From assembly GCA_016192905.1 (NCBI GenBank), contig JACPTG010000001.1, positions 505,935-569,934 of the forward strand: a stretch of DNA of 64,000 nt. The letters are read 5' to 3'. The position numbers and the translations under genes were made by a program. Positions within the stretch are counted from its first letter, which is position 1. Each line of letters opens with the position of its first letter. Source of the stretch: Candidatus Woesearchaeota archaeon. GTDB lineage: Archaea; Nanobdellota; Nanobdellia; Woesearchaeales; UBA10216. This document shows positions 20,136-27,580 of the stretch, one piece after another. The notes below the pieces were generated by a model that had not been told where the DNA came from, did not search any database, and saw only the letters and a program-made list of their open reading frames with translations.

Positions 20136-20234
20136 AGTATTGCGTTTTTCCTTTTAAGTCGGATAAGATTTTTGAAGAAAAACTCCAGGGCATAATTAAC
20201 TTTATAAACCTGCCAGTTTTCTATCCCTTTTTTG

Positions 20235-21296
20235 ATGGACGCTTATATAGAGCTGGAAGACAGCACTAAATTCTACGGCAAATCATTCGGGTCGGAAGAG
20301 GCGGCGGCAGGAGAAGTTGTCTTTAATACCGGAATGGTCGGGTATCCTGAAAGCCTCACCGACGCCAGCTACAAGGGCCAGATACTGGTACTTACATATC
20401 CCCTTATAGGAAACTACGGCGTGCCAGGAGATGAAAAGGATGAACTCGGCCTCCTGGCCAATTTTGAATCCCCAAGAATACAGGTAAGGGGCCTGGTCGT
20501 TGCAGACTACTCAGCAAAATACAGCCACTGGAAAGCTGTAAGAAGCCTTGGAGACTGGCTGAAGGAGCAGCGAATCCCTGCCATAACAGGAGTTGACACC
20601 AGGGCGCTGACGAAAAAGCTGCGGGAGAAGGGAGTGATGCTCGGCGGAATTTCGGCAGACGGCAGCAGTCCTGAGCTAAAGGACCCGAACCTTGGAAATC
20701 TTGTCGCTGATGTTGCCGAGCCTGGAAGGATTATCTACAATGGCAGCGGCAGGAAGAAAATACTGCTGGTTGACTGCGGGGTAAAGAACAACATAATAAG
20801 ATGCCTGGCTGCAAGAGGGCTGCAAGTGATTAGAGTGCCGTGGGACTATGATTTCCTAAAGGAAGATTTTGACGGGCTGGTGATAAGCAACGGGCCAGGA
20901 GACCCAAAGATGTGCAAAGCCACGATAAGAAATGTGGCGGCAGCCATGGGCAAGGAAGTGCCAACATTCGGAATATGCCTGGGGAACCAGATAATGGCGC
21001 TTGCAGCAGGAGGGGACACATACAAGCTGAAGTACGGGCACAGAAGCCAGAACCAGCCCTGCATAAACCGAAAAACAGGAAGGTGCTGCATAACCACGCA
21101 GAACCACGGGTATGCGGTTGACTTTAAATCAATGCCCTCTGGATGGGAAGAGCTGTTTGTGAATGCAAACGATGGCACAAATGAAGGATTGAGGCACAGA
21201 AGCAAGCCTTTCATTTCCTGCCAATTCCACCCTGAGGCAACGCCTGGCCCCGTAGACACCCAATATTTGTTTGACGAGTTCCTGAGGATGCTGTAA
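20235..21296 (+). CDS. carA: carbamoyl-phosphate synthase small subunit
   Basis: GEVVFNTGMVGYPESLTD, SNGPGDP, GICLGNQ and QFHPEA motifs. Confidence 0.97.
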   Translation: MDAYIELEDSTKFYGKSFGSEEAAAGEVVFNTGMVGYPESLTDASYKGQILVLTYPLIGNYGVPGDEKDELGLLANFESPRIQVRGLVVADYSAKYSHWKAVRSLGDWLKEQRIPAITGVDTRALTKKLREKGVMLGGISADGSSPELKDPNLGNLVADVAEPGRIIYNGSGRKKILLVDCGVKNNIIRCLAARGLQVIRVPWDYDFLKEDFDGLVISNGPGDPKMCKATIRNVAAAMGKEVPTFGICLGNQIMALAAGGDTYKLKYGHRSQNQPCINRKTGRCCITTQNHGYAVDFKSMPSGWEELFVNANDGTNEGLRHRSKPFISCQFHPEATPGPVDTQYLFDEFLRML

Positions 21297-21298
21297 AA

Positions 21299-21811
21299 AT
21301 GGAAGAGATCGTAGACATAGTTGATGAGAACGACAGGTTTGTACGGAAGGCGACAAGGGATGAGATGATGGAGAAAGGCCTCCTCCACAGGGCTGCCAGG
21401 GTGATAGTCGTGAATGGCAAGGGAGAATATCTCGTGCATAAAAGGGCTGCTGCCAAAAAAATATACCCTGGAAGGTGGGACATAGGTATTGCAGAAACGC
21501 TTGTTTCAGGAGAAGGATACGAAGCAGCAGCAATAAGAGGCCTTGCAGAAGAGCTCGGAATACACGGAGTGTCAAACATGGAACTCAAGAGTTCGCTGCT
21601 GTTCAAGCTCAGGTATGCCTCAGAAATCAACAATGCATGGCTTAAGGTCTATGAGATAACCTATGACGGCGCCATAACTCCGCAGGCTGATGAAATAGAA
21701 GCTGTACAGTTTCTCCCTCTTAATGGTGTGATTGAGCTTTCCAAAGGCGATAATTTTTCGCCATCAGGAAAATTTGTGCTGGACAATTACCTGGAGGTGG
21801 GGCCTTATTGA
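21299..21811 (+). CDS. NUDIX hydrolase (YfcD/IDI-like)
   Basis: DIVDEND, LLHR, YPGRWD and GEGYEAAAIRGLAEELG motifs. Confidence 0.85.
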   Translation: MEEIVDIVDENDRFVRKATRDEMMEKGLLHRAARVIVVNGKGEYLVHKRAAAKKIYPGRWDIGIAETLVSGEGYEAAAIRGLAEELGIHGVSNMELKSSLLFKLRYASEINNAWLKVYEITYDGAITPQADEIEAVQFLPLNGVIELSKGDNFSPSGKFVLDNYLEVGPY

Positions 21812-21824
21812 AAGTCCGGCATTT

Positions 21825-21920
21825 AAACTAAAAAGTAGCAGGCTGTGGCTACCCCTATTTGGAAACTCCCTTCGGGAAACCGGAGGATTCAACGCAACAG
21901 CTTCGTGTACTGTAGCCAAA
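21825..21920. repeat. 96-nt dispersed intergenic repeat, copy 2
   Basis: Colinear with 10467-10562. Confidence 0.8.
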
Positions 21921-21955
21921 ACAAGAAAATTTTCAATGCAGCCGGAGGTGAAGAA

Positions 21956-22630
21956 ATGACATTATCCATAAGCCACAGGGGAGCTGGCTACCTTGAGCCT
22001 GAAAACACCCTGCGGGGCATACGAAAGGCAATAGAGCTTAAGGCTGACTATGCTGAAGTTGACGTCAGGCTGACAAAGGACCGGAAGCTTGCGGTGATAC
22101 ACGACGAGACAGTGGAGCGCACAACAAACGGCAGAGGGCTGGTGAGGGAAATGACTTTAAAACAGCTGCAAAAGCTGGATGCAGGCAAAGGCGATAGAAT
22201 ACCTGCGCTTGAGGAAGTCCTTGCCGAAGCGAAAGGCAGGATAAAACTGCTTGTTGAACTTAAGGAGGAAGGGCTGGAGCAGCAGGCGGTTGATGCGATT
22301 GAGAAAAGCGGATTTAAAGACGCGGCTATAATCTCCTCCCTAGCCCAACTGCTAAGGAGAGTGAGGCAGATAAGCAAGCTGAAAACAGGGCTGATTTTTC
22401 TGGGGGCGGACTGGAACGTAGAGCTTGCCGCAAAGCTCGGGGCATCATTAGCATTGCCAAACTTCCACTATACTGAGCGCGGGCTGATTGTAAAAGCCCA
22501 CAACGCTGGGCTGGAAGTTTTCACCGGGAACTGCGACAGCGAATATGACGTACGAATCATGAAGGCAATAGGCGCTGATGCGATATCGAGCAACAGGCCG
22601 GACATGCTCGTGAGGATGCTTTCAAAATGA
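21956..22630 (+). CDS. glycerophosphodiester phosphodiesterase family
   Basis: SHRGA..PENT, EVDVRLTKD and HDETVERTTNG motifs; SD GGAGGTG before ATG 21956. Confidence 0.92.
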   Translation: MTLSISHRGAGYLEPENTLRGIRKAIELKADYAEVDVRLTKDRKLAVIHDETVERTTNGRGLVREMTLKQLQKLDAGKGDRIPALEEVLAEAKGRIKLLVELKEEGLEQQAVDAIEKSGFKDAAIISSLAQLLRRVRQISKLKTGLIFLGADWNVELAAKLGASLALPNFHYTERGLIVKAHNAGLEVFTGNCDSEYDVRIMKAIGADAISSNRPDMLVRMLSK

Positions 22631-23157
22631 AAGAGGAATACCTTGACATTGTGGACGAGGAGGATAATGTAGTAAGGCAGGCCACCTGGAAGGAGATGAT
22701 GGACCGCAAGCTGCTACACAGGACGGCTAACGTATTTGTGCTCAATTCAAAAGGCGAGCTGTTCGTCCACAGAAGGGCAGAGCACCTCAGGCTTTACCCA
22801 GGCCTGTGGGATGTTAAAGTAGGGGGTTCTGTAAGGGCCGGGGAAAGCTATGAAGATGCAGGAAAAAGGGAGGTCATGGAGGAAACCGGAGCAACAAATG
22901 TCAAACTGACAGAAATTTTCAGGATAAAGTACAGGAAACCAGAGCACAATGTCAACAGGTGCGTGTTCAAGTGCGTTTACGACGGAAAGATAAAAATTGA
23001 CGAGACGGAAGTTGCTGAGGGGAAGTTCACAAGCATTGATGATGCAAAAAAGATGATGGCTGACGGGAAACTTTCACCTTCGGCAACTGATGTATTTATG
23101 CGATTTTTGAGGCAAAACAAAAATGACCAAAATCCGGAAAATTTACGGAAAAATTAG
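22627..23157 (+). CDS. NUDIX hydrolase (paralog of 21299-21811)
   Basis: DIVDEED, LLHR, YPGLWD and GGSVRAGESYEDAGKREVMEETG Nudix box. Confidence 0.88.
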   Translation: MKEEYLDIVDEEDNVVRQATWKEMMDRKLLHRTANVFVLNSKGELFVHRRAEHLRLYPGLWDVKVGGSVRAGESYEDAGKREVMEETGATNVKLTEIFRIKYRKPEHNVNRCVFKCVYDGKIKIDETEVAEGKFTSIDDAKKMMADGKLSPSATDVFMRFLRQNKNDQNPENLRKN

Positions 23158-23188
23158 CACTGGACACTGGACAAGTGCCCCCCTAAGC

Positions 23189-23392
23189 TTTATTAAGGGC
23201 TGTTTTTCAAGCTGTGTTGCGCTTCGGGCGCACGCAGAGCTGCTAAATTATGATTTTCCCCCCTTTGCGGGTCGGCCTGACAACCTAAAATCAATTATGC
23301 AGCTCTGCTTAACGCGCCCTTCGCTTCAGAACCAGAGTTCCTTCAGAGTGGAAGGAACTCTTACAAAAGCTAATAGTTCTGGAGGCAATAAA
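23189..23392 (+). promoter_or_regulatory. TATA box plus highly structured 5' leader
   Basis: TTTATTAA at 23189; helices GCAGAGCTGC/GCAGCTCTGC (23234/23299), AGAGTTCCTTC/GAAGGAACTCT (23334/23351) and CTTCAGAAC/GTTCTGGAG overlapping the SD GGAGG. Confidence 0.6.
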
Positions 23393-24412
23393 ATGAAAAA
23401 CGATTTTGAAATACATTTTTGGGAACTATCAGAAAGAGTAAGATTGCACATTAATGATGAATACTTAAAAAATCTTTTTGACAAAGCATCGGATGGAGGT
23501 TTGTATAAACTTGCTAAAACCCTTAATATTTCCTATCCGTTTATTATCGCTTTAAGACGAGGCGTTTATAGTATTCCAAGTAAGATTTTGGTTCAACTTG
23601 CTATAGAAGCTAATGAAGACCTTTATTCAATTGAGGACCAAATCAAAGAAATAGGAACACGAGCTGGAACTAAATGCAAAATCAAATTCCCTATTAAGAC
23701 AACTTCTCAAATGGCCTCCCTAGTTGGCCATGTTTTTGGCGATGGATATATTGGAAACAAAAAGCGGCAATTTGAATATTGTAATGACAATATTAATCTT
23801 CTTAATGAAGTTAGGGAAAATGTTAAAATAATTTTTGGATTAGATCCAATGACCGAAAGAATAAATAGAATAGGCTATCCCACAATAGTTGGAGAAGTGC
23901 TTGTAAAATTCGGGGCACATTTTTCGCCTAAAATAAGATCTGAAAAGCTTGTTCCAGAATGGGTAAAGTTTGGCTCAATAGAATATAAGAGAGCATTTAT
24001 TAGGTCTCTTTTCAATGACGACGGATCCGTTCTTTTTTCAGAAAATTACAAAGCGAAAGGCGTAAATTATTATCAAATTCGCCATAAAGATTTAACTGAA
24101 ACTTCACAACAGTTGCTTCAGGAAATAAAGGAAATGCTTGAAGATTTTGATGTTTTTTCAGGAAAACCTCACACAAGAAACACTTATGTTAGCCACGGCG
24201 AAGAACATACCATCAGTTATATAAATATAACAAATACTGCCAGCATTATTAATTTTCATAACCGAATAGGATTAGCAGAAGGGAATAAGTTCAACAGACT
24301 TAAAAAAATAATTAAAAGAGATGGAGGAATAGTGCTAAAAGATAAACCAAAAAAGGTTTTAGTGCTTGGAAGTGGCGCATTGAAGATTGGAGAGGCCGGC
24401 GAGAGTGCCTGA
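23393..24412 (+). CDS. free-standing LAGLIDADG homing endonuclease with N-terminal HTH
   Basis: SLVGHVFGDG and AFIRSLFNDDGSV motifs; SD GGAGG before ATG 23393; AT-richer than flanks; C-terminus reads into carB exon 1. Confidence 0.85.
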   Translation: MKNDFEIHFWELSERVRLHINDEYLKNLFDKASDGGLYKLAKTLNISYPFIIALRRGVYSIPSKILVQLAIEANEDLYSIEDQIKEIGTRAGTKCKIKFPIKTTSQMASLVGHVFGDGYIGNKKRQFEYCNDNINLLNEVRENVKIIFGLDPMTERINRIGYPTIVGEVLVKFGAHFSPKIRSEKLVPEWVKFGSIEYKRAFIRSLFNDDGSVLFSENYKAKGVNYYQIRHKDLTETSQQLLQEIKEMLEDFDVFSGKPHTRNTYVSHGEEHTISYINITNTASIINFHNRIGLAEGNKFNRLKKIIKRDGGIVLKDKPKKVLVLGSGALKIGEAGESA

Positions 24413-27400
24413 AAGCACCGCCATTTCGACTACTCCGGTTCACAGTGCATAAAAGCACTTAAAGAAGAAGGCATAAATGTAATTTTGGTAAATGGCAATA
24501 TAGCAACAAGGCAAACTGACCCTGGAATGGCGGACAGGATTTATTTCTTACCCATTACTCTTTTTTTTGTCGAAAAAATCATCGAAAAAGAAAGGCCTGA
24601 TGGAATCCTGCTGAGTTTCGGCGGGCAAACCGCTTTGAACTGCGGCGTTGAGCTTTATGACAATGGGGTTTTTGAAAAATACGGGGTCAAGGTTTTAGGC
24701 ACCCCGGTTGAAGCGATAAAGGCAACTGAAGACCGCGAGCTGTTTTCCATGAAACTTGCCGAAATAAATCTTAAGAGCCCAAAAAGCTTTGCTGTAAGGA
24801 AAGTCGAAGATGCTGTCAAGGCAGGCGACAAGATAGGATTTCCAGTCATAATCAGGGCCGCATATGCCCTTGGAGGGCTGGGAAGCGCCATATGCAGGAA
24901 TGAAGAGGGACTGGCTGACGCGGCGGGAAAAGCATTTGCCCACTCCAAACAAATACTGGTAGAGGAATACCTTGAGCACTGGAAAGAAATCGAGTATGAG
25001 GTTGTCCGGGACTCAATGGACAACTGCATAACCGTATGCAACATGGAAAACCTTGACCCAATGGGAATCCACACAGGAGAAAGCATTGTGGTAGCGCCAT
25101 CACAGACATTAACAAATTCCGAATACCACAAGCTAAGGGAAATATCAATAAGGCTGGTAAGGCACATTGGAATAGTCGGGGAATGCAATGTGCAATTTGC
25201 CCTCGACCCCAAGTCAGAGGACTACAGGATAATCGAGGTCAATGCAAGGCTTTCAAGAAGCTCGGCGCTCGCCTCAAAAGCAACGGGATACCCGCTGGCA
25301 TTCGTGGCTGCAAAGCTCGCGCTAGGATACGGCCTGACAGAAATACAGAATTCCATAACAAAATCCACCACCGCCTGCTTTGAGCCAGCACTTGATTACA
25401 TAGTCGTGAAGATGCCAAGATGGGACATGAAGAAATTCCGCCAGGTGTCCAGGAACATCGGAAGCTCAATGAAATCGGTCGGGGAGGTGATGGCTATAGG
25501 CAGAAAATTCGAGGAAGCCCTCCAGAAGGCAATAAGGATGCTGGACATTGGCGCGCAGGGACTGGTCTGCAACAGGGACAACTACAAGAGCCTTGACGTT
25601 GAAAAAGAGCTGGCAAATCCCACAGACGAGAGGATATTTGCAATTGCGGAAGCCCTGAATAAAGGATATCCTGTGGAAAAAATTTCTGAATTAACAGGGA
25701 TTGACAAGTGGTTCCTTGGAAAAATGGAAAACGTAACAGAAATGGAAAAGCAGCTTTCAACCGCCGGAAAACTTGAAAACCTCCGCAATGGCGACATTCT
25801 GAAGGCAAAGCAGCTTGGCTTTTCAGACAAGCAGATTTCAATCCTTCTGCAATGCTCCCATGCGGATGTCAGGAAATACAGGGATAAACTGGGAATCAGG
25901 CCGTTTGTAAAGCAAATAGACACACTTGCCGCAGAATACCCTGCAAAAACCAACTACCTCTACCTTACATACAACAGCATCGAAGACGACATAAAATCTG
26001 GAGCTGAGAGGAAAGTGATAGTGCTGGGCTCGGGCGTGTACAGGATAGGCAGCTCCGTGGAATTTGACTGGTGCTGCGTAAACTCAGCCCTTACACTCAG
26101 GGAGCTGGGATACGGCACAATAATGATAAACTACAACCCGGAAACAGTGAGCACTGACTACGACATGTGCGACAAGCTTTACTTTGACGAAATATCATTC
26201 GAGACAATCGCTGAGATATACGAAAAGGAAAAACCTGAAGGCGTCATTATCTCAATGGGCGGGCAAATACCAAACAACATGGCAATGAAACTCAGTGAGG
26301 CAGGGATAAAAATACTTGGAACCAAGGCACGCAGCATTGACGCAGCAGAGGACAGGCACAAGTTCTCAAAACTCCTGGATGAACTGGGAATACCACAGCC
26401 AAAATGGAGGGAGCTGACAAACTTTGAGGAAGCCAAGAAATTTGCAGCCAATGCGGGGTATCCTGTGCTTGTAAGGCCCTCCTATGTGCTCAGCGGAGCC
26501 GCGATGAGCGTCGCCTTCAACGACGAAGACCTTGAAACGTACCTTACCAGGGCATCAAAAGTAAACAGGGAACATCCAGTGGTAATAAGCAAATTCATGG
26601 TAAACTCAAAGGAAATTGAAATTGACGCCGTCGCATATGAAGGCAACCTGATTGCAGAAGCCATAACAGAGCACGTTGAAAACGCAGGAGTCCATTCCGG
26701 AGATGCCACAATGATTTACCCGGCAGCCGGGCTGTACCCTGAAACTGTTGAAAAGGTGAGGACAATCGCAGCATTGATAGCTGAGAAGCTGAAAATAACC
26801 GGGCCCTTCAACATACAATTCCTGGCCAAGGACAATGAGGTAATGGTAATAGAATGCAACCTGAGGGCGAGCAGAAGCTTCCCCTTTGTCTCAAAGGTAA
26901 AAAAGAGCAACATGATAGCAATAGCAACAAATGCGATAATGGGAAGGAAAATCCAGGAGGAAGCAAAGAGCATGGAGTATTTCGGCGTAAAATCGCCGCA
27001 GTTCTCCTTTTCAAGGCTGAAAGGGGCTGACCCGGTCCTAAGCGTTGAGATGGCGTCAACAGGCGAAGTTGCCTGCCTTGGGAGAAACGCGCATGACGCC
27101 TTCCTTAAGGCAACGATAGCCGCGGGCCTTAAAATGCAGCTGCTGCAAAACGGCGAAGAAAACCAAGGCCCGAAAAATGTGCTCTTAAGCATCGGCGGCA
27201 GCGAGAACAAGGAGAGATTCCTGGAACACTCAAGAAAGCTTGCTGACCTGGGGTTCAATGTTTATGCAACCGACAATACCTCACAGTTCCTGGCAGAAAA
27301 TGGGGTCAAAAACTTGATGCTGCACAAGGTCAGAGAGCAGAAATCGCCAAACATAATGGAGTACCTTAACAACCACAAGCTAAACCTGATAATCAATGTT

Positions 27401-27580
27401 TCAAAGCCAGGCTCAGGCAACGGGAAGGAAAAGATAAGGGACGGATATGTGATAAGGAGAAGCGCGGCTGATTACGGGATTCCACTTGTGACCAACCTGC
27501 AGCTGGCCAAAATGCTGGTGGATTCAATTGCAGAAGTAAAGCTGGAATCACTGGAAATCAAAGCATGGGATGAATACTGA
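24332..27580 (+). CDS. carB: carbamoyl-phosphate synthase large subunit, split: exon 1 24332-24403 and exon 2 24425-27580 (1075 aa after splicing)
   Basis: GTG 24332 after GGAGG; KKVLVLGSGALKIGEAGE|FDYSGSQ; two ATP-grasp domains and a C-terminal MGS domain intact. Confidence 0.95.
24404..24424 (+). other. putative 21-nt bulge-helix-bulge-type mRNA intron
   Basis: GGCG-AG^A-GTGC-CTGAAA-GCAC-CGCC-AT^T; removal gives GGC GAG TTC GAC TAC (GEFDY) and deletes an in-frame TGA. Confidence 0.85.

Follow-up and report, generated by a model that had tools for sequence, protein, structure and literature searches.

How short introns of the bulge-helix-bulge (BHB) type that contain no open reading frame (ORF) enter archaeal genes and spread among them is a long-standing question. 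It is addressed here by the carB locus of a Candidatus Woesearchaeota archaeon, contained in a stretch of 64,000 nt (the window). The carB gene is interrupted near its start by an insert of 21 nt, and a free-standing gene for a LAGLIDADG endonuclease lies directly upstream. The endonuclease gene and the micro-intron form a co-mobile unit; this follows from their co-occurrence at carB in 19 out of 19 loci, a survey of carB 5' ends, a second pair of endonuclease and intron, and remnants of exon 1 beside the cassettes. The locus may well be an archaeal chromosomal counterpart of the collaborative homing of phages, a reading to which we incline with reservation and for which we infer the cleavage site, the protection of the carrier and the splicing.

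Positions are those of the window, on the + strand; G000 is the source genome and G001 a relative in the same genus. The unit and the gene that it interrupts have the following parts.

23393-24412, + strand: free-standing LAGLIDADG endonuclease ORF, double-motif, with a helix-turn-helix (HTH)-like N-terminal domain; it abuts carB
24332-24403, + strand: carB exon 1, 24 codons, with GGAGG 5 nt upstream of the GTG start; relatives have a homologous exon 1
24404-24424, + strand: micro-intron, designated intron b, 21 nt, BHB-type, between the Glu and Phe codons of GEAGE/FDYSG (the slash marks the insertion point)
24425-27580, + strand: carB exon 2, 1051 codons plus stop, with all carbamoyl-phosphate synthetase domains (Pfam); its first 156 nt lie within the recombination tract described below

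The start codon of carB is probably the GTG at 24332, and the insert begins 72 nt later. Exon 1 ends in GEAGE, and after the insert the frame resumes with FDYSG. This agrees with the first-pass annotation of the locus, which had placed the intron about 70 nt past the carB start, in the most conserved codons of the gene, and the endonuclease gene adjacent to carB. The endonuclease gene has its own ATG (23393) and GGAGG, and its ORF abuts carB and runs into exon 1. In G000 it lacks a stop of its own, continues in frame across exon 1 and ends at a TGA within the insert, its final 27 codons being carB exon 1 and the beginning of the insert. On a polycistronic RNA, splicing would join the G000 endonuclease, in frame, with the whole of CarB; in G008 and others the endonuclease ORF ends at a stop of its own.

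Endonuclease loci were sought in 61 genomes (G000 and 60 relatives), which gave G008, and in 401 genomes of the order, which gave G381, G372, G342, and G368 (E ≤ 7e-52). All GTDB species genomes gave 16 loci, five of them being G008, G381, G372, G342, and G368. Metagenome contigs gave three loci with 61-62% protein identity, one of which duplicates L168. Together with G000, the 16 GTDB loci and the two new metagenome loci make 19 distinct loci. In every one of them carB is directly downstream of the endonuclease gene and carries an insert at GE/FD; the loci come from several families, and no recombinant without the intron was found among them. One of these loci, L171, has an in-frame TAG about 100 nt into carB exon 2, at a position that encodes Glu in its relatives; the gene may be a pseudogene, the sequence may contain an error, or this may be one more oddity.

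The 5' end of carB was surveyed in 102 genomes, 18 from the family and 84 from the order (80 plus four of the endonuclease loci); the order sample had 98 genomes that matched carB, and eight of them were left out (four unpublished, two incomplete at the 5' end, two others). The insert at GE/FD was present in six of six carriers of the LAGLIDADG gene versus 12 of 96 others (Fisher p 1.4e-5, uncorrected for kinship), and outside the family in 4/4 carriers versus 4/80 non-carriers. A non-carrier in the order is a genome with no homolog of either endonuclease family in genome-wide searches, and the non-carrier status of eight family genomes rests on 0.7-1.5 kb read upstream of carB. Endonuclease and intron are both present in G372 and both absent from G401, of the same genus; the family-mates sampled for G381, G342, and G368 are likewise without both. 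An independent distribution of intron and endonuclease, named in the first-pass annotation as the pattern that would speak against a joint element, was not seen in either count. That the two are independent elements, with the intron inherited vertically and the endonuclease gene standing beside carB by chance, is hardly credible: introns without the endonuclease in 12 of the 96 genomes and micro-introns elsewhere in the genome would fit it, but the co-occurrence counts, the same-genus contrast of G372 and G401, and the same slot in 19 loci do not.

In G003, G016, and G005, the slot upstream of carB is filled by a different gene of about 440 aa. The product of this second endonuclease gene has three to four HNH_repeat units (PF18780, E 4e-30) and no other Pfam domain. 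The search of the order added genes of this second type adjoining carB in G052, G097, G175, G168, and G202, and one on another short contig in G186, which makes nine genomes with this gene. The following copies were located on their contigs.

L024, 106-1413: second-type endonuclease gene
L034, reverse strand: second-type endonuclease gene
L039, 70-1437: second-type endonuclease gene

Reading of the alignment by eye gave a PD..E.K-like motif in the C-terminal tail. The whole-protein model (predicted local distance difference test score, pLDDT, 79; predicted template modelling score, pTM, 0.36) had no Foldseek match at E ≤ 0.001, and its weak rows include several PD-(D/E)XK enzymes and I-Bth0305I. 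Some genomes have a second insert in carB, intron a, which is 32-39 nt long, lies between GSGA(L) and KIGEAGE, and has a BHB-like fold. Intron a is present in six out of six members of the HNH_repeat subgroup that is about 37-38% identical to the G003 query (G016, G005, G175, G168, G202, and G186), and the G003 subgroup has intron b of type 2 in two out of three, G097 being the member without an intron. When either endonuclease is compared with either intron, 14 of 15 carriers have an intron versus 7 of 87 non-carriers.

The layout seen at carB recurs at cysS. A LAGLIDADG paralog in G009, G015, and G022 extends to the start of cysS or overlaps it (L005 2634-2760; L006; L007), and an insert of about 30 nt splits CGP/TVYDY about 30 codons into the gene. 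The cysS insert was found in 4 of 18 parsed genes of the family (5/23 unparsed); G025 has the insert, and the endonuclease was not detected in this genome. At the start of the G000 cysS ORF (L203 1348-1400, G000:C3), 17 residues resemble the C-terminus of the cysS-associated endonuclease paralog, and this cysS has no insert; the stretch possibly remains from an endonuclease gene since lost. G012 and G021 have more distant LAGLIDADG relatives whose C-terminal tail resembles a winged helix (L009, L010); they lie directly upstream of a Hel308-like helicase gene and an RtcA-like gene.

The left end of the cassette is formed by a leader with these features.

23158-23392, + strand: leader of 235 nt between the NUDIX gene and the endonuclease ORF
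23158-23173, + strand: conserved element of 16 nt (a 7-nt tandem), left end of the cassette
23188-23198, + strand: A/T box, archaeal TATA-like; its position after the 16-nt element recurs in most loci
23219-23361, + strand: structured leader, read from sequence, with a long irregular hairpin at about 23219-23326 and a perfect 11-bp hairpin at 23334-23361

The 16-nt element is found upstream of 11 of the 17 LAGLIDADG genes examined and of all seven HNH_repeat-type genes; its role may be that of an operator or an RNA signal, or it may mark the end of the cassette. The A/T box is the putative promoter of the endonuclease gene. The leader hairpins differ in G008 by fully compensatory changes, and the leader matched no Rfam family. 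Contigs of other organisms from groundwater runs share the leader and the intron region, with 1276 different letters in between. Two other readings of the leader were dropped. Upstream of ATG 23393 the reading frame stays open in each of the six loci that were examined first, yet the leader is not taken as a protein extension, because it has a TATA-like box inside and the differences between G000 and G008 preserve base pairs and not residues. The first bases of the leader as a copy of the exon 1-intron junction were inconsistent across loci.

Immediately upstream of five cassettes there is a decayed second copy of the carB start; four of these are LAGLIDADG loci (L167, L168, L179, and L174 = G381) and one is of the HNH_repeat type (G005). 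The decayed copy spans the start codon through the GSG codons, sometimes reaches LKI(AG), and ends just before the 16-nt element; at synonymous sites it departs from the functional exon 1 downstream. Such a duplication with foreign synonymous sites is expected if a break near there was repaired by copying a foreign cassette with its own exon 1 and intron. From these remnants, the cassette was evidently inserted into carB near the GE/FD site.

A recombination tract is seen in the source genome, which is 1.43 Mb in six contigs; its relatives in public databases carry Woesearchaeota or Nanoarchaeota labels (DPANN archaea), and its DNA was found in groundwater runs. The tract and the genes that precede it are as follows.

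22837-24580, no strand: recombination (co-conversion-like) tract of 1744 nt, seen in the alignment break against G001, in GC content (GC), and in trees
20232-21296, + strand: carA (from gene order and ORFs/Pfam, as the next two)
21299-21811, + strand: first NUDIX gene
21845-22630, + strand: GDPD gene
22627-23157, + strand: second NUDIX hydrolase gene (Pfam PF00293, E 9.5e-18), with its 3' part from about 22837 inside the tract

The tract contains the 3' half of the second NUDIX gene, the promoter-like leader, the intact endonuclease gene, carB exon 1, the 21-nt insert, and 156 nt of exon 2. The window has no detected tRNA. The GC of the tract is 0.377 versus 0.491 for the whole genome, and equally low values occur in 2.2% of 14,190 genome windows of 1744 nt; a value as low as that of the endonuclease gene occurs in 0.5% of the 938-nt genome windows. 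GC changes in steps along the region.

22627-22836, NUDIX 5' part: 0.510
22837-23157, NUDIX 3' part: 0.421
23158-23392, leader: 0.485
23393-24330, endonuclease gene: 0.326
24331-24580, first 250 nt of carB: 0.412
24581-27580, remaining carB: 0.479

The block of deviating composition is also where the close relatedness of G000 and G001 breaks off sharply. The carA-pyrD region of the two genomes is 94-99% identical outside the tract in blastn, and the tract is the sole exception; positions 22872-24383 had no blastn match to G001. Base-by-base alignment placed the left edge at about 22837-22875, inside the NUDIX gene, and the right edge at 24580, with near-identity again from 24581. Identity of carB between G000 and G001 is about 65% over the first 52 codons of exon 2 and 96% past them. 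In windows of 50 codons, exon 2 is 66%, 81%, and then mainly 96-100% identical, with local dips to 85-92%. In the tree of the first 52 exon-2 codons, the patristic distance between G000 and G001 is 0.69, and in the tree of codons 53-480 it is 0.04, with the two genomes as sisters (support 1.0). The compositional and phylogenetic break inside carB is therefore present in GC steps, in window identity, and in the distances, and the tract behaves like a co-conversion tract, the footprint of a mobile unit. The first-pass annotation had reported an AT-richer tract at 23070-24720 and compared it to a co-conversion tract. The tract is real and the comparison holds in the alignment edges, in GC, and in the 5' and 3' carB trees, but the actual start is about 230 nt further left and the end about 140 nt earlier. 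The tract edges could not be mapped in G372 against G401, as this pair is 77% identical and too diverged.

The same block is built differently in G001: the 3' end of its NUDIX gene has diverged, there is a HAD hydrolase gene, and the 5' end of carB contains two inserts, introns a and b. In G017 a HAD gene is also directly upstream of carB. Being found in both, the HAD-carB order may be the older one, and conversion may have taken place in G000, but the argument is weak.

The 21-nt insert is probably a BHB micro-intron that is removed from the mRNA. In canonical BHB motifs, the cuts fall after the second base of each bulge. The predicted RNA of G000, folded as a 69-nt transcript, has a helix of 4 bp, in which the last bases of exon 1 pair with the 3' part of the insert, a bulge of 3 nt, an inner hairpin of 4 bp with a 6-nt loop, and a second 3-nt bulge, and the predicted cuts after the second bulge base excise exactly 24404-24424, i.e. 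21 nt. Among homologs, the insert at GE/FD ranges from 17 to 40 nt, with no room for an ORF of its own. Minimum free energy (MFE) folds have the same architecture in all 18 alleles, plus a closing helix between exon 1 and exon 2 that is built with different synonymous codons in two allele types. RNAalifold gave seven pairs, five with compensatory changes. When an 8-pair structure was counted over the 18 alleles, 90.8% of cells were paired versus 72.2% in shuffles, none of 500 shuffles reached this value, and the covariation score was 0.534 versus 0.02-0.10 for slid partners. The outermost helix pair is non-standard in seven of the 18 alleles; the G000 fold is without the outer helix adjoining the 3' bulge, and a distal exon 1-exon 2 helix is predicted, with a register that varies by intron type. 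A strict BHB scan found cuts excising exactly the insert in six of the 18 alleles (G000, G001, G012, G381, G372, and G368), but it also gave numerous chance matches elsewhere, and the MFE folds and pair counts told more. Removal of the insert restores the reading frame in all 18 alleles by protein logic. No Rfam family, group I or other, was found in 22900-24700, where only chance-level rows were obtained. G000 encodes one protein with an EndA catalytic domain (183-aa ORF in the region of C4:33744, PF01974, 97.3 bits) and an RtcB ligase gene (PF01139, 514 bits).

That the insert is no intron at all is most improbable, whether carB is then taken for a pseudogene or a product of misassembly, or the insert is supposed to be bypassed, recoded, or read through. 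In favour of this reading, the 21 nt of G000 are a multiple of 3. However, the insert has an in-frame stop, TGA in G000 and TAA in G008, and homologous inserts of 17, 19, 20, 22, 23, 29, and 32 nt shift the frame; the many lengths that are not multiples of 3, together with TAA in place of TGA, imply that the insert is untranslatable. Furthermore, the fold covaries, and carB past the break is intact and under purifying selection, with 999 codons without stop in both G000 and G001 and a ratio of nonsynonymous to synonymous substitution rates (dN/dS) of 0.18. Contigs of two runs (X1, X2) cover 22400 to 24991-25000 with no differences, although they are possibly the source of this assembly. A look for RNA runs covering 23100-24700 found none, the four runs compared here consisting of DNA contigs.

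The upstream ORF encodes a predicted double-motif, monomeric LAGLIDADG homing endonuclease under purifying selection. It matches LAGLIDADG_3 (PF14528) with E 5.1e-9 and 36.7 bits (cut-off 22.5). The Asp codons of the motifs are at 23741-23743 and 24020-24022, and G-D-G and D-D-G are invariant in six homologs of 34-60% identity. The AlphaFold2 model (pLDDT 92.1, pTM 0.89) has the pseudo-dimeric alpha-beta-beta-alpha-beta-beta-alpha fold, and its best Foldseek matches (E 7e-10 to 1e-5) are the intein- or intron-borne LAGLIDADG enzymes TliVMA, PI-PkoII, PI-SceI, I-Tsp061I, and I-DmoI. A search of PDB sequences with the LAGLIDADG profile gave weak rows only (E 0.06-0.95). The ORFs are intact, and dN/dS among three close homologs is 0.08-0.12. 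The gene is absent from the same-genus G001. Two other types of element were ruled out. The gene is not part of an intein, because it has its own ATG and GGAGG, the NUDIX gene upstream is unrelated, and no Hint/intein domain was found in Pfam; and it is not intron-encoded as I-DmoI is, because the ORF is upstream of carB exon 1 and not inside the intron.

It was also considered whether the protein has been domesticated, as a WhiA-like regulator of carB or as a maturase-like helper in splicing of a relaxed BHB intron, and is no longer a mobile nuclease. The fixed place upstream of carB, the strong purifying selection, the weak resemblance of the N-terminal 90 residues to an XRE-type HTH (E 0.06-0.4), and the WhiA regulator among the Foldseek matches are compatible with such a role. 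Nevertheless, it is very unlikely, as both catalytic Asp residues are invariant, the gene is patchily distributed and lacking in same-genus relatives (G001, G401), its GC is 0.326 in a genome of 0.491, recombination tract and duplicated exon-1 scars accompany it, an unrelated nuclease family has the same association, and introns persist without the protein in 12 genomes.

In the counterpart of collaborative homing proposed here, the mobile cassette would comprise a promoter-bearing leader, the free-standing LAGLIDADG gene, and a replacement 5' end of carB with the BHB micro-intron. The enzyme would cut intron-less carB at or beside the GE/FDYSG codons, and repair off a cassette-bearing allele would copy the endonuclease gene and exon 1 together with the intron and part of the DNA on either side. 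Where the left flank lacked homology, the old exon 1 of the recipient would persist as a remnant. In the carrier, the intron would split the presumed target, leaving the chromosome uncut, and EndA and RtcB would remove the intron from the mRNA, so that carB would still be functional. It is plausible that the intron shields the cut site.

For the cut site and the protection an alternative has to be weighed, namely that the enzyme is a free-standing homing endonuclease with its target elsewhere in the carB 5' end (e.g. in exon 1 or at the cassette junction), that carriers are immune owing to other differences, and that the intron is merely carried along. We regard this as unlikely, but as a serious alternative, and several results weigh on its side and against the proposed mechanism. 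The tract of G000 extends 156 nt beyond the intron, and anything so close would be co-converted; as the intron is 72 nt from the gene start, linkage alone could yield complete co-occurrence. G001, with the likely older HAD-carB order, already has the intron at GE/FD, as does G017, so that the event which made G000 need not have started with a cut at an intron-less site. Composition is uninformative on whether G000 or G001 is derived, since GC is rather low in both alleles at the 3' end of NUDIX and at the 5' end of carB, and searches of genomes and metagenome contigs found no close donor of the G000 tract, the best allele being 70.5% identical to its 5' segment. The exon-1 remnants are degenerate, with homology recognisable up to GSGS, LK, or LKI(AG), short of GE/FD, and the scars locate the cassette junction to within about 30 nt of GE/FD, no finer. 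The intron is retained in 12 of the 96 non-carriers, G097 has the second endonuclease and no intron, and no endonuclease gene adjoins the RtcB gene of G000, which has micro-introns of its own (see below). All sequences derive from metagenome-assembled genomes, and related genomes are non-independent samples. Against the carried-along intron stand the 19 out of 19 co-occurrences over several families without an intron-less recombinant, the recurrence of the layout at cysS, and the three endonuclease lineages, each with a particular intron (LAGLIDADG with b; one HNH_repeat subgroup with a, 6/6; the other subgroup with type-2 b, 2/3).

If the collaborative reading of carB is carried further, BHB micro-introns in archaeal protein genes would be the protective halves of two-part selfish elements and not inert relics. 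At least two unrelated families of free-standing endonucleases (LAGLIDADG, and HNH_repeat with a PD-(D/E)XK-like tail) would each have a micro-intron of its own as partner, within the first 25 codons of carB, and a paralog likewise at cysS. The endonuclease would drive gene conversion, the intron would shield the target, the tRNA-splicing machinery would remove the intron, and an orphan intron would stay after decay of the endonuclease. This generalisation is tentative, and we would accept it almost as readily as reject it; if true, ORF-less BHB introns in Woesearchaeales and other DPANN archaea would have a general way to arise and spread. The RtcB gene of G000 (G000:C2:112722-114070, L164) has two hairpin inserts of about 29 nt in catalytic motifs, after DAHEG and after GIGF; standing without a neighbouring endonuclease, they indicate that micro-introns also exist partnerless. 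For annotation, carB, cysS, and RtcB of these genomes will be called broken or truncated unless the micro-introns are recognised. The carB locus itself is a testable system, with one enzyme, one 21-nt intron, one conserved motif, natural intron-plus and intron-less alleles (the latter e.g. in G401 and G013), and a mapped tract.

The literature as covered here (with full-text literature of subscription journals outside the coverage) yielded no paper on micro-introns in protein genes of Woesearchaeota or on their link to endonucleases, and a 2025 paper on archaeal splicing endonucleases cites, in its accessible part, the work on cbf5 alone for introns of protein genes (PMC12397907). The cbf5 pre-mRNA introns of Crenarchaeota are BHB introns of 16-44 bp, with gains and losses among relatives; according to the accessible part of that paper, a nuclease could not be encoded in introns of this length, and their mode of spread was left open (PMC2738675). 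They resemble the carB insert as short ORF-less BHB introns in an archaeal protein-coding gene, but that part of the paper describes no endonuclease partner, whereas carB has a neighbouring endonuclease gene and a recombination tract. The pairing of endonuclease and intron suggests how ORF-less mini-introns spread. Archaeal rRNA BHB introns that encode I-DmoI and I-Tsp061I share with this locus the enzyme fold, the kind of intron (tRNA-splicing endonuclease), and the homing logic; their ORF is inside the intron, whereas here it lies upstream of the gene that the intron interrupts, outside the intron, which is far too short for an ORF.

Phages provide the remaining comparisons, drawn from the accessible parts of the papers cited. 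SegF and SegG of T4 are free-standing endonucleases that perform intronless homing (PMC6083498). Like the gene described here, they are optional endonuclease genes between conserved genes; they cut the neighbouring conserved gene and cause marker exclusion with co-conversion, but unlike at carB there is no intron, and immunity is via sequence polymorphism. Collaborative (trans) homing is described for the free-standing F-CphI beside a group I intron, devoid of an ORF, in psbA of cyanophage S-PM2 (PMC6083498; PMC3984707), and T4 mobE with the defunct I-TevIII intron is another example (PMC2790892). For the phage case it was demonstrated that the insertion site is cut and that the intron protects it (PMC6083498; PMC3984707), whereas both are deductions here. 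Other differences are that F-CphI has an Endo VII motif and the enzyme here is of the LAGLIDADG type, that the phage intron is a self-splicing group I ribozyme and the one here a protein-spliced BHB intron of 17-40 nt, and that the element here resides in an essential biosynthetic gene on the cellular chromosome of a DPANN archaeon. Common to both are a free-standing endonuclease gene adjoining a gene with an ORF-less intron in a conserved site, joint inheritance of the two, and co-conversion of flanks. Should the intron-less site be cut by the enzyme, collaborative homing would reach beyond the group I introns of phages to protein-spliced introns in cellular chromosomes.

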